Assembly (NCBI RefSeq): GCF_003790525.1
Contig: NZ_CP033635.1
Length of the DNA: 64,000 bases
Source: Escherichia coli
GTDB lineage: Bacteria > Pseudomonadota > Gammaproteobacteria > Enterobacterales > Enterobacteriaceae
Reading direction: 5' to 3' (one strand)
Of this stretch, positions 49,961-53,240 are shown piece by piece. The translations under genes and the position numbers were made by a program. Under the pieces are notes generated by a model. That model was not told where the DNA came from and did no database searches. It saw only the letters and a program-made list of their open reading frames with translations. The first letter of the stretch is position 1; every line of letters starts with the position of its first letter.

Positions 49961-50328
49961 GCAGTGCCCTGCTGGTTTTCACTGATGCGATGAAAGAACT
50001 GCCAGTAACACTTCTTTATTCCGAATCGCTCTTCCGGACGATTAAGTATTGTTCATGGTGGCCGGAGAATGGTTTTCGAACCATAGATGAAGCCAGAAGT
50101 TGGTTAAGCAAGTTCACGCAATGGTACAACCTGGAACACAAGCACAGCGGTATTAAGTATGTTACTCCGGATGAACGCCATCGCGGAATTGATGCACAAA
50201 TACTGGAAGCCAGAAAAAAAGTTTATCGCGAAGCTCGCAAGCGTCATCCTGAGCGCTGGAGCAAACAGTTGCGTGACTGGGAACTCATTCAGGCAGTTTA
50301 TCTGAATCCAGAAAAAGAAGCGGCATAA
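49957..50328 (+). pseudogene. Transposase C-terminal fragment (DDE integrase-core type) fused to the permease remnant
   Basis: ...FRTIDEARSWLSKFTQWYNLEHKHSGIKYVTPDERHRG... resembles the conserved C-terminus of integrase-core transposases. Confidence 0.45.
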
Positions 50329-50699
50329 CGTAATTTTATTACATCAGGCGACAACTACCTTGAAAAACGCCGGAAATAACTGACTCTTTACCCGCAGCCA
50401 TGCAGTGGGCTTTTTTATATCCCCCCTTCACAAACTCTGCTCACTGGTTATACCGGTTCACCTTTCCGGCTTGTAACCGCATGCACTCTGGACTGCCAGT
50501 CAGCTCATGTATGTCTCTTCCTTAATTGTGTTCATGAACAGGTGACACCTTATCTCCTGACAGAATAAACAAATTTTATTAATTCTGCTCTTCGCCAGCC
50601 CACTGCTACCATCTGTCGCGACGGGGCATGGCTGCCTGCATGGCATGCATTTGTTGTGTCTGTGCTGACTGAATACGATAAAAATTTCTGGTTAATGAC

Positions 50700-50725
50700 G
50701 ATCGATATCATCGATCGATTCGATC
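50700..50725. promoter_or_regulatory. Cluster of three GATC (Dam) sites in a cgatcgat direct-repeat array, 90-115 bp upstream of the OMP gene
   Basis: GATC at 50700, 50713 and 50722 within gacGATCgatatcatcGATCgattcGATCgatttt. Confidence 0.4.
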
Positions 50726-50815
50726 GATTTTATTCGATTGAGGCTATCGCATGGCGGGTTTTAAAATGCACTGAGTACTGCTTGCAGCAACGGAGCAATA
50801 ACGGAGATAATTGAA

Positions 50816-51556
50816 ATGAAAAAGGTTTTTGCTGTTTCAGTGGTGGCCGCAGCCTGTGTATTTGCAGCAAATGCAGGTGCTGAGGAAGGTAAAAGCGGTT
50901 TTTATCTGACCGGTAAAGCCGGTACCTCTGTGGTGTCACTTTCAGACCAGCGTTTCCTGTCAGGAGATGAGGAAGAAACGTCAAAGTATAAAGGCGGCGA
51001 TGACCATGATACGGTATTCAGTGGTGGTATCGCGGCTGGTTATGATTTTTATCCGCAGTTCAGTATTCCGGTTCGTACAGAACTGGAGTTTTACGCTCGT
51101 GGAAAAGCTGATTCGAAGTATAACGTAGATAAAGACAGTTGGTCAGGTGGTTACTGGCGTGATGACCTGAAGAATGAGGTGTCAGTCAACACACTAATGC
51201 TGAATGCGTACTATGACTTCCGGAATGACAGCGCATTCACACCTTGGATATCTGCAGGGATTGGCTACGCCAGAATTCACCAGAAAACAACCGGTATCAG
51301 TACCTGGGATTATGAGTACGGAAGCAGTGGTCGCGAATCGTTGTCACGTTCAGGCTCTGCTGACAACTTCGCATGGAGCCTTGGCGCGGGTGTCCGCTAT
51401 GACGTAACCCCGGACATCGCTCTGGACCTCAGCTATCGCTATCTTGATGCAGGTGACAGCAGTGTGAGTTACAAGGACGAGTGGGGCGATAAATATAAGT
51501 CAGAAGTTGATGTTAAAAGTCATGACATCATGCTTGGTATGACTTATAACTTCTGA
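50816..51556 (+). CDS. Small outer-membrane beta-barrel protein of the Hek/Tia/Hra (opacity-like adhesin/invasin) type
   Basis: 246 aa; signal peptide MKKVFAVSVVAAACVFAANA; alternating-hydrophobic beta strands; C-terminal ...GMTYNF; RBS GGAG upstream. Confidence 0.65.
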   Translation: MKKVFAVSVVAAACVFAANAGAEEGKSGFYLTGKAGTSVVSLSDQRFLSGDEEETSKYKGGDDHDTVFSGGIAAGYDFYPQFSIPVRTELEFYARGKADSKYNVDKDSWSGGYWRDDLKNEVSVNTLMLNAYYDFRNDSAFTPWISAGIGYARIHQKTTGISTWDYEYGSSGRESLSRSGSADNFAWSLGAGVRYDVTPDIALDLSYRYLDAGDSSVSYKDEWGDKYKSEVDVKSHDIMLGMTYNF

Positions 51557-51634
51557 CGACACTGCTCCTGAACGATAATTGCGTATATTCTGTAATTAAG
51601 ATAATTGCATATCTTCTGCAATTAAACAGAAACA

Positions 51635-51670
51635 CCCTGCAGTCTATTGCTGCAGGGTTGTCTGTTATCT
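51635..51670 (+). terminator. Intrinsic terminator after the OMP gene
   Basis: CCCTGCAG-tctattg-CTGCAGGG hairpin followed by a T-rich run (ttgtctgttatctgtttt). Confidence 0.6.
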
Positions 51671-51737
51671 GTTTTACAGATAATTTCTGATTTTTATTAT
51701 CCTGTTCTCTTCATAATAATGTTGTCGATATACTCCG

Positions 51738-53240
51738 ATGAATATCAGAAAACTGTTTTGTCCGGGCGACACACCCCGGATTTTATTGTTTTTATTCTTT
51801 TTTGTTATTTCTGTGATAATCACAATTGCATGCGGATACACTGAGAAGAATGCCACAGGAAATGTGCTGCTTCTGTTTCTCCTTCTGCTCCTTGCACACA
51901 GAAATACCCTCACATCCATTACAACGCTGTTATTTCTGTTCTGTTGTGCACTGTATGCGCCTGCGGGTATGACGTACGGTAAAATCAACAACAGTTTTAT
52001 TGTCGCGTTGCTGCAGACCACGGCTGATGAGGCTGCAGAGTTTACCGGGATGATTCCTGTTTATCATTTTCTGGTCAGTGCCGCGATTCTGGTATTCATG
52101 GTGATTTTCTGGCGGACACACCACCGCGGTCACCGTAACTGGCTGGCACTGCTGCTGTTCGTATTATGCTCTGTAAACAGCTGGCCGTTGCGGATGGTTA
52201 AAGGAACTGTTGTGGGGACAACTGACACATTGCGTGAAATGCAACATTATAAACAACTGAGTCAGCACGGGGCTGACAACTGGAAAATCCTGCCGGGAAC
52301 ACCGTTATATGACACAATTGTTATTGTCACTGGTGAGAGTGTGCGCAGGGATTATATGTCGGTATATGGCTATCCCGTGCCAACCACGCCGTGGCTGAAT
52401 ACGGCTCCCGGTTTATTTATTGACGGCTATACATCGGCAGCAGCCAGTACCGTACCTTCCCTGAGCCGGACACTGATTTATGACTATGAGCAGAACCCTG
52501 ACTCCGGCAACAACGTGGTGGCGCTGGCAGCAAAAGCAGGATACAGCACATGGTGGATATCCAATCAGGGAAAGCTGGGGGAGCATGATACACGCATCTC
52601 TGTTATTGCTTCTGATGCGGAGCATACCGTTTTCCTCAAGAAAGGCAGCTTTGCTTCCCGTAAAACGGATGACATGTTGTTGTTACAGGAAACAGAACGT
52701 GCACTGGCGGATAAATCCTCTCCGAAGGTGATATTCCTGCACATGATTGGCTCTCATCCGAATCCGTGTGACCGACTTAACTCCTGGCCGAATCATTACC
52801 TGGAGCAGTATCCCCGAAAGGTTGCCTGTTACCTCGCCAGCATCAGTAAACTGGATAACTTTCTCGGTCAGCTTGATGGTATCCTTCGCCGGCATTCCCG
52901 TCATTTCGTCATGCTTTACTTTTCTGACCATGGGCTGTCGGTCAGCGACAGTGCTAATCCTGTTCATCATGATGGTCATGTGCAGGGAGGCTACAGCGTT
53001 CCCCTGATTATTACCGCCAGTGATATCACGTCTCATCAGTCCGTCAGCAGAAAAATCAGTGCCCGTCATTTCGCAGGTATTTTTCAGTGGCTGACCGGCA
53101 TTCGTACTGAAAATATACCGCCATTCAATCCGCTGACAGACGAAGATAATGAACCCGTTATGGTTTTTAACGGAGAGAGGAATGTACTGGCAGACAGTCT
53201 GAAACCACAGCCTCTGATTCTTCCGGTCAAGGGAAAATAA
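51738..53240 (+). CDS. Phosphoethanolamine-transferase-like membrane protein (EptA/OpgE sulfatase superfamily)
   Basis: 500 aa; N-terminal TM helices plus C-terminal sulfatase-like domain with ...IVIVTGESVRRDYMSVYGY... motif. Confidence 0.7.
   Translation: MNIRKLFCPGDTPRILLFLFFFVISVIITIACGYTEKNATGNVLLLFLLLLLAHRNTLTSITTLLFLFCCALYAPAGMTYGKINNSFIVALLQTTADEAAEFTGMIPVYHFLVSAAILVFMVIFWRTHHRGHRNWLALLLFVLCSVNSWPLRMVKGTVVGTTDTLREMQHYKQLSQHGADNWKILPGTPLYDTIVIVTGESVRRDYMSVYGYPVPTTPWLNTAPGLFIDGYTSAAASTVPSLSRTLIYDYEQNPDSGNNVVALAAKAGYSTWWISNQGKLGEHDTRISVIASDAEHTVFLKKGSFASRKTDDMLLLQETERALADKSSPKVIFLHMIGSHPNPCDRLNSWPNHYLEQYPRKVACYLASISKLDNFLGQLDGILRRHSRHFVMLYFSDHGLSVSDSANPVHHDGHVQGGYSVPLIITASDITSHQSVSRKISARHFAGIFQWLTGIRTENIPPFNPLTDEDNEPVMVFNGERNVLADSLKPQPLILPVKGK

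Follow-up and report, generated by a model that had tools for sequence, protein, structure and literature searches.

The stretch of Escherichia coli DNA analysed here, 64,000 nt of contig NZ_CP033635.1 (assembly GCF_003790525.1) and referred to below as the window, carries at 50816-51556 on the plus strand the gene for an outer-membrane protein (OMP) of 246 aa, an adhesin/invasin of the Hek/Hra1 type. Upstream of this gene, which is presumably the one regulated, lie three closely spaced GATC sites, the GATC triad. The encoded protein shows 96.7% identity to an OMP that adjoins papX in a strain of extraintestinal pathogenic E. coli (ExPEC; the hek arrangement, locus L023), 94-96% identity to other E. 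coli alleles, and 63% identity to a protein annotated as Tia in RefSeq. Its homologues carry the Pfam annotation OMP_b-brl. The Hra family comprises Hra1, Hra2, Tia, Hek, and Hes (PMC5539235). The high identity to both the pap-linked hek product and Tia therefore places the OMP of the window, by sequence, in this family of outer-membrane adhesins and invasins.

Hek, Hra1, Hra2, Tia, and Hes have been studied as adhesins, invasins, and autoagglutinins of ExPEC as well as of enterotoxigenic (ETEC), enteroaggregative (EAEC), and Shiga toxin-producing E. coli (STEC). In the literature searched, their regulation is essentially undescribed. Here, we present an analysis of the GATC triad, of its conservation at the promoters of related genes, and of its possible role as a methylation-sensitive operator of the regulator OxyR.

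The GATC triad and the adjacent promoter

The three Dam sites are located at 50700-50703 (GATC1), 50713-50716 (GATC2), and 50722-50725 (GATC3), which corresponds to -116, -103, and -94 with respect to the ATG at 50816. The letters of the region, gacGATCgatatcatcGATCgattcGATCgatttt, are identical to those quoted in the first-pass annotation of this DNA, which had described three Dam sites within 26 bp, about 90-115 bp before the start codon of a Hek/Tia-like outer-membrane gene. The number of sites, their position, and the nature of the gene were all confirmed. Its further argument, that the density and the direct repeats are unlikely to be incidental, stands in part. The repeats are real, as tandem repeat analysis (TRF) finds an imperfect (CGAT)x8 array, a 13-bp period in 2.3 copies, and a 9-bp period in 2.1 copies; the CGAT array has 79% matches and 20% indels, and its uninterrupted CGAT runs comprise two units at most. 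Density on its own is less telling, since random placement of the 199 GATCs in 64 kb produced at least one cluster of three in 26 bp in about 33% of the trials. The triad is the single such cluster in the window, and its sites are the sole GATCs between 49390 and 54146; by hand arithmetic, three sites in these 4.76 kb fall within 22 bp with P ~6e-5, for an interval that was picked post hoc. Density is thus weak evidence, and the case rests on the motif, its conservation, and its position at the promoter.

The sole promoter-like site between the GATC cluster and the ATG is a predicted sigma-70 promoter on the plus strand, consisting of a -35 hexamer TTGAGG (50738-50743), an 18-bp spacer, and a -10 hexamer TAAAAT (50762-50767). 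Transcription would then start near 50774, and relative to this predicted start the triad extends from about -74 to -49. In alignments of diverged alleles, further conserved blocks are TTTTAAAAT and the -35 position, both found in all aligned alleles, and the ribosome-binding site GGAG (50803-50806, plus strand), which is invariant. Another conserved block, CGATAAAAAT, is located further upstream at 50676-50685 on the plus strand and reads CGATAAGAAAT in loci of the tia type. These loci contain a second promoter-like site, TCGATA-16-TATGAT, with its -35 in this block and its -10 overlapping GATC1; the window counterpart of this -10 is a poor match.

Consensus scans of the window promoter for CRP, IHF, PhoP, FNR, and Cra sites yielded weak matches alone, none of them convincing. 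A search of 50300-50900 against Rfam gave no credible family, the sole match being IS102 with 19.7 bits against a gathering score of 46. An open reading frame (ORF) of 52 aa with a GTG start (50656-50814, plus strand) runs across the GATC cluster up to the start codon of the OMP gene. This ORF and those on the minus strand were treated as spurious, mechanical calls; indels between aligned promoters make a conserved frame unlikely, and the 52-aa ORF is probably no gene.

OxyR-type half-sites in the triad

GATC1 and GATC2 together form GATCGaTatcAtCGATC, an exact fit to the Dam-sensitive OxyR half-site frame of agn43 and of gtr from phage P22, in which two GATCs stand 13 bp apart. Half-sites were scored against the OxyR half-site consensus ATAGnTnnnAnCTAT (maximum 10). 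The half-site enclosed by GATC1 at its 5' end and GATC2 at its 3' end (HS-1, 50701-50715) reads ATCGATATCATCGAT, also given as ATCGaTatcAtCGAT, and is an OxyR-type dimer half-site containing the box of LysR-type transcriptional regulators (LTTR), ATC-N9-GAT. It reaches 8/10, the score of gtr OxyR(A), gtr OxyR(C), and the second half-site of agn43, and scores of at least 8/10 occur at just 20 of the ~64,000 window positions. Within its frame, ATCG/CGAT replaces ATAG/CTAT, position 6 being T and position 10 being A. The sequence GATCGATATCATCGATC (50700-50716) is the single exact match in the window to the 17-mer pattern GATCGNTNNNANCGATC, for which at most 0.09 window matches are expected even with one mismatch. 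A relaxed form of this pattern matched the two validated gtr half-sites alone in the 41.7-kb P22 genome, and across all fetched loci its matches were confined to agn43, gtr, and Hra-family promoters.

GATC2 also forms the 5' end of an overlapping half-site, ATCGATTCGATCGAT (50714-50728), which contains GATC3, 9 bp after GATC2, and scores 8/10 (7-8/10 in tia-type promoters). A candidate promoter-proximal half-site, HS-3 (TTCGATTGAGGCTAT, 50733-50747, 7/10), follows 17 bp after HS-1 and overlaps the -35 hexamer; it is weakly conserved in tia, with ~5/10 by hand count. No other tetramer in the 64-kb window scores as high as the combination of HS-1, N17, and HS-3, with 15/20; shuffling of the 230 bp upstream gave P = 0.0015 for this value, and agn43 reaches 14/20. 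This putative tetramer site covers -73 to -27 relative to the predicted start and thus overlaps the -35. With the second half-site at N7, the window reaches 13/20. Elsewhere, the Salmonella homologue described below scores 15/20 at N7 and tia 12/20 at best, and Hra2-like and Yersinia alleles show two half-sites of 7-8/10, N16 apart, those of the Hra2-like alleles reaching 8/10 each.

Conservation across the Hra family

Related loci were collected by a narrow peptide-pattern scan of a genome collection (6 loci), a homologue search, and eight contig look-ups. In tia (L006, 63% protein identity), the GATCs are found at -116, -103, and -94 in flanks that can barely be aligned. The same 13/9-bp triad occurs in L002, L010, L024, L025, and L029 at offsets that are equal, as in L002, or differ by 1-2 bp, with protein identities to the window OMP of ~62-90% where measured (90% for L024, 62% for L025, ~63% for L010). 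Hra2-like alleles (57-62% identity) have four GATCs at -126, -113, -104, and -95, the extra one being part of an added 9-bp unit. A rare homologue in Salmonella enterica (52% identity) has GATCs at -126, -113, and -104. In the homologue of Yersinia similis Y228 (39% identity, L012:2236-2290), GATCs are located at -196, -183, and -165, and the upstream region is nearly identical to the OxyR/Dam operator of E. coli agn43 (AACGATCAATA...TTATCGATCGTT...ATAAG).

Among 14 distinct promoters, related to each other and selected for carrying the cluster, conservation is 0.99 in the 12 GATC columns and 0.76 in the remaining 48 (permutation p < 1e-5). In the half-site itself, positions specified by the consensus are conserved to 0.95 and its 'n' positions to 0.84, and the variation of HS-1 among alleles falls mostly at the latter. 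T6 is invariant in the E. coli and Salmonella alleles and is replaced by C in Y. similis; position 10 is either A or G. GATC1 is kept in 13 of the 14 promoters, and GATC3 in the Hek, Tia, Hra2-like, and Salmonella promoters. Taken together, we regard it as highly probable that the triad functions as a conserved cis-element of Hra-family promoters.

The element is not universal. It is missing from a subgroup with 52-74% identity beside a BamE/OmpA-like gene (P0034, P0040, P0069) and from a Providencia homologue, and single sites or all of them have been lost in several alleles. In the WP8-S18 type (L003:1578-1600), GATC2 is lost by a change of CGATC to CTATC, the one substitution that moves the half-site toward the OxyR consensus, and the score rises to 9/10. 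GATC1 reads GATT in strain 2014C-4135 (L028), and GATC3 is lost in L015. In strain J6 (L031), an IS5 insertion sequence (IS) takes the place of the promoter. None of the three GATCs is left in the WP2-W18 type (L004; 75 genomes at 72% identity) after two substitutions, GATC1 reading GAAC, and deletion of a 4-bp unit, and the coding sequence of this type is intact. The element is hence ancestral to a large part of the Hra family but dispensable.

Of the complete E. coli genomes searched (5,426), 1,665 gave a match to a promoter query of the Hra2/tia type, and in 879 of these the match covered at least 80% of the query; the window-type promoter is present in ~65 genomes. In the commonest hek/hra loci, including pap-linked ones (L023:1535-2293, L005:766-1523, L030:901-1658), a tia-like triad promoter is located ~650 bp before hek. 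Downstream of this promoter, the ancestral ribosome-binding site and start are present as a degraded copy (GGAGATAACTGAGCTTAAAA); then come an inserted ORF of 122 aa (WP_001275820/22), 170 bp after the triad promoter, for which no NCBIfam match was found, and hek itself. A second promoter-like region, without the triad, accompanies hek in these loci. The sequence suggests that hek may be read there from two promoters, one of them methylation-sensitive.

From these comparisons a putative cassette can be defined as a pair of GATCs spaced by 13 bp within an OxyR-type half-site, joined by one or two more GATCs in steps of 9 bp, beside the TTTTAAAAT -10; it may be written as the pattern GATCGnTnnnAnCGATC. 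Promoters of this type occur in ~30% of complete E. coli genomes and upstream of the Salmonella and Yersinia homologues, and the triad also stands in front of at least one operon for chaperone-usher fimbriae. In this last case (L053:1724-1965, minus strand; metagenome contig OIEQ01000005.1), a triad CGATCGATATACTCGATCGATACGATCGAT with 13/9-bp spacing precedes by ~240 bp the gene of a fimbrial major subunit (NCBIfam PRK15210, 232 bits), which is divergent from a gene of the MgtC/SapB family. This arrangement suggests that the cassette may be in use by other surface structures. A scan of metagenomes with GATCGATNTNNNCGATCGAT produced at least 120 matching loci. Among the matches listed, most are loci with a median GC content of 58% and presumably arose by chance; the listed matches also include at least five Hra-family OMP loci identified by tblastn and the agn43 operator (L112). 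In another contig (L036:13840-13900; Ga0209547_100129), the triad is accompanied by a tia-like upstream flank (TTCGATAAGAAAT...GATCGATTTTGTCGATCGATACGATCG); the downstream sequence is unrelated, and the contig ends 450 bp further on.

Genomic surroundings of the gene

The OMP gene is followed by a terminator-like hairpin (51634-51658, plus strand) and by a gene for a CptA/EptA-like phosphoethanolamine transferase of 500 aa (51738-53240, plus strand), which also follows the OMP gene in nearly all loci examined. The transferase gene probably has its own promoter, as a promoter-like site TTTACA-16-TATTAT is present at 51673-51700. The two genes form a conserved module that moves between islands. 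A selenocysteine tRNA gene (selC, 56538-56632, minus strand) is located ~5 kb downstream of the OMP gene, and the window represents a genomic island of mosaic structure, associated with selC and containing an integrase, IS fragments, and accessory genes. In a related record, a tyrosine integrase and a tetratricopeptide-repeat (TPR) protein are encoded between the OMP gene and selC. The segment 50330-51700 is 100% identical in strain TUM9803 (NZ_CP135671), and the first ~50 kb of the window are not collinear with that strain (same-offset identity 0.56). An IS256-like element is present in the window in two direct copies (1646-2943 and 25619-26916), 98.5% identical and 23,973 bp apart; its 401-aa transposase matches an element annotated as IS1414 in the TUM9803 record.

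Discussion

On balance, we lean to the view that OxyR uses the triad as an operator and that methylation by Dam determines whether it is occupied, which would make it a switch of phase or heterogeneity like those of agn43, gtr, and opvAB. The GATC triad would form the methylatable core of an operator for a tetrameric LysR-type regulator, most probably OxyR, at the Hek/Hra/Tia promoter. By analogy with agn43, gtr, and opvAB, OxyR and Dam would compete for this operator after replication. Bound OxyR would shield GATC1-3 from Dam, so that daughter cells would inherit the operator unmethylated and bound by OxyR; were Dam to methylate the sites first, binding of OxyR would be blocked and the methylated state would be inherited instead. 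Unequal transcription from the adjacent promoter in the two states would give rise to ON and OFF subpopulations with respect to the surface adhesin/invasin. OxyR as the binding protein, the block by methylation, and the bistable outcome are the steps that we infer from the sequence.

A direction of the switch can be proposed tentatively. The 15/20 tetramer over the -35 resembles the repressing configuration OxyR(BC) of gtr, and alleles lacking the operator keep intact coding sequences; for these two reasons we lean slightly, by analogy, to OxyR-bound being the OFF state at the hek-type promoter. The upstream promoter-like site of the tia-type loci would give an agn43-like geometry. A compact N7 OxyR site that ends at the -35 is the layout of classical OxyR-activated promoters. 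Candidates for naturally locked states are provided by the CTAT variant of the WP8 type, by L028, L004, and L031, and by the hek loci in which the 122-aa ORF separates operator and gene.

Several points weigh against a Dam/OxyR switch. The second half-site is found at N7, N16, or N17 depending on the allele, and its quality varies too, the best tetramer score of tia being 12/20. Tandem CGATCG repeats automatically create palindromes and overlapping registers, which inflates matches to any dyad consensus. The promoter and the transcription start are themselves predictions, and the column statistic was obtained from a selected set of relatives. The losses in L003, L004, L015, L028, and L031 indicate that the element can be dispensed with. 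In the literature searched, none of the Hra-family genes has been linked to Dam, OxyR, methylation, or phase variation, and no study of OxyR binding, chromatin immunoprecipitation (ChIP), or expression at this locus was found; the methylome papers examined contain no site-level data for it. The proposal thus appears to be unreported in this literature.

The most serious alternative is that another protein, of the LysR type or another dimer that recognises an ATCGAT dyad, uses the site for conventional regulation without phase variation and that the GATCs are a by-product; methylation by Dam might then influence binding or have no bearing on it. The box ATC-N9-GAT is generic for LysR-type regulators and could be used by one other than OxyR; here it scores 6/6. 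The inconsistency of the second OxyR half-site points the same way, and conservation demonstrates function without naming the protein. However, the module has spread to unrelated islands and to other genera, where its neighbours differ, and must therefore be served by a core factor, for which OxyR and Dam qualify. Moreover, there is exact agreement with validated Dam-sensitive OxyR half-sites over the whole frame, T6 and A10 included, and the Yersinia homologue has an operator like that of agn43. We therefore consider regulation by another protein unlikely, and an operator of OxyR remains the reading that we prefer.

The GATC sites might instead act through SeqA, which binds pairs of hemimethylated GATCs, or through hemimethylation itself. 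Binding of SeqA once the DNA has been replicated, or an altered promoter strength in the hemimethylated state, would then tie expression to the replication cycle, and no heritable states would result. Three to four GATCs spaced by 9-13 bp, the outer sites of the triad being 22 bp or about two helical turns apart, would suit such an effect. This leaves unexplained the conservation of T6, of A/G at position 10, and of the G and C flanking the GATCs, the 13-bp pair shared with OxyR operators, and the WP8 variant, in which a GATC is lost while the OxyR consensus is improved. An effect of SeqA alone is accordingly regarded as improbable.

Still less probable is a role in RNA structure, in which a CGATCG hairpin followed by a T-rich tract would serve as a terminator that insulates the OMP gene from transcription of upstream IS and integrase genes, or as a structured 5' leader. 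The hairpin ATCGATCG-att-CGATCGAT with the tract TTTTATT was flagged as terminator-like in the window and in L023, and folding energies are low for the RNA of the window (-19.3 kcal/mol, z = -2.4) and of Hra2-like alleles (-17.4 kcal/mol, z = -2.5), but not for tia (-8.2 kcal/mol, z = -0.4) or L004 (-9.0 kcal/mol, z = -1.0). The stems have a GC content of ~50%, compensatory changes are lacking, tandem CGATCG is palindromic by construction, and GATC1 lies outside the main hairpin yet is equally conserved.

A Fur box over GATC1 would allow a Fur/Dam switch such as the overlapping one described for the sci1 type VI secretion system (T6SS) of EAEC (PMC3145626). The sequence GTTAATGACGATCGATATC (50691-50709) agrees with 14/19 positions of the Fur consensus, a value that 0.01% of the positions in the window and 0.65% of the shuffles also attain. 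Both loci thus have a GATC in a regulator box at the promoter, but the Fur-like match of the window is limited to the window, L002, and the L003 type and is not conserved in the family; tia, Hra2-like, Salmonella, and Yersinia promoters reach at most 13, at other positions. Since the box also covers just one of three conserved GATCs, we hold such a switch to be very improbable. Least probable of all is an incidental imperfect (CGAT)n microsatellite or a contingency repeat with slipped-strand variation, which would accord with the (CGAT)x8 array, with a density that is not improbable, and with past slippage seen as the 4-bp unit deletion of L004 and the 9-bp unit gain of Hra2-like alleles, but not with triad offsets that are fixed among alleles of 52-63% protein identity with unalignable flanks, nor with uninterrupted runs of two units, too short for slippage at high frequency.

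If the proposed OxyR/Dam switch is real, Hra-family virulence factors would be phase-variable, which bears on adhesion and invasion assays, on the choice of vaccine antigens, and on expression studies. The more general proposal, that one portable Dam/OxyR cassette controls essentially the whole Hra family, namely Hek, Hra1, Hra2, Tia, and probably Hes, is advanced more tentatively, and we rate it as somewhat less likely than not; if true, it would mean that invasion and autoaggregation phenotypes ascribed to these proteins come from a heritable subpopulation alone.

Comparison with known systems

The first-pass annotation had pointed to the competition of Dam with OxyR or Lrp at factors such as Ag43 and Pap. 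The OxyR half-site frame, the conserved offsets, and the position at the promoter fit the former, whereas spacing and motif do not fit Lrp. A switch of the Pap type has two GATCs ~102 bp apart in Lrp sites together with homologues of PapI and PapB. Dam-dependent control of an adhesin would be a common trait, and hek-type loci adjoin pap, with papX in L023. The Lrp/Pap model was rejected, as spacings of 13 and 9 bp compare with ~102 bp and the best Lrp match (11/15) is located at the -10 and not at the GATCs. Adjacent to the OMP gene of the window, no regulator gene was found, papI/papB-like genes being considered.

The agn43 region of E. coli K-12 contains ACGAtcaatatCTAT-N7-ATCGtTtatAtCGAT, with GATC-II and GATC-III 13 bp apart. 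As in the window, this pair forms a half-site G-ATCG-nTnnnAn-CGAT-C (L007, 437-453), and the gene product is a surface adhesin that causes autoaggregation and is encoded on DNA acquired horizontally. The three GATCs of agn43 are found within ~40 bp with spacings of 19 and 13 bp, in contrast to 13 and 9 bp in the window, and its operator extends from about -3 to +33 according to our reading of L007, downstream of the -10, whereas the triad of the window would be situated upstream of the -35 or, with its half-sites, overlap it. At agn43, OxyR acts purely as a repressor, and binding and switching have been demonstrated; in the window both are predictions.

A likeness in promoter geometry is found in the gtr operons (P22, LT2, and PT4), which are responsible for O-antigen glucosylation. 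The P22 region contains tGATCGgTaacAaCGATCa, then ATAGaTaaaAaCTAT, then tGATCGcTtgtAtCGATCa, separated by N17 spacers. These blocks are OxyR dimer half-sites; OxyR binds to them, methylation of the GATCs abolishes binding, and the GATC pairs start 13 bp apart at -110/-97 and -46/-33 (PMC2909390). The half-sites GATCGgTaacAaCGATC and GATCGcTtgtAtCGATC share the 13-bp GATC pair with the window. The gtr half-sites are located upstream of the -35 and overlapping it, and their N17 spacing resembles that of HS-1 and HS-3: relative to the predicted start, HS-1 (-73 to -59) corresponds approximately to gtr B (-77 to -63) and HS-3 (-41 to -27) to gtr C (-45 to -31). Differences concern the number and arrangement of the sites. 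The four GATCs of gtr form two pairs at a distance of 51 bp, and its central half-site is perfect and lacks a GATC, an arrangement that permits alternative occupancy of AB (activating) or BC (repressing), whereas the window has one pair plus one or two GATCs at 9 bp and no perfect half-site.

In Salmonella, opvAB (STM2209-2208) is described as a lineage-forming ON/OFF switch governed by OxyR and Dam with four OxyR sites (PMC4856963, PMC3350482). By this description, it resembles the window in being a horizontally acquired envelope locus in which OxyR sites with several GATCs precede the promoter. With agn43, gtr, and opvAB for comparison, the class has few characterised members, to which the Hra-family promoters would add a widespread new example. 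Their layout would differ somewhat from that of the known systems, with a triad of 13 + 9 bp upstream of or overlapping the -35, and their distribution would be unusually wide.

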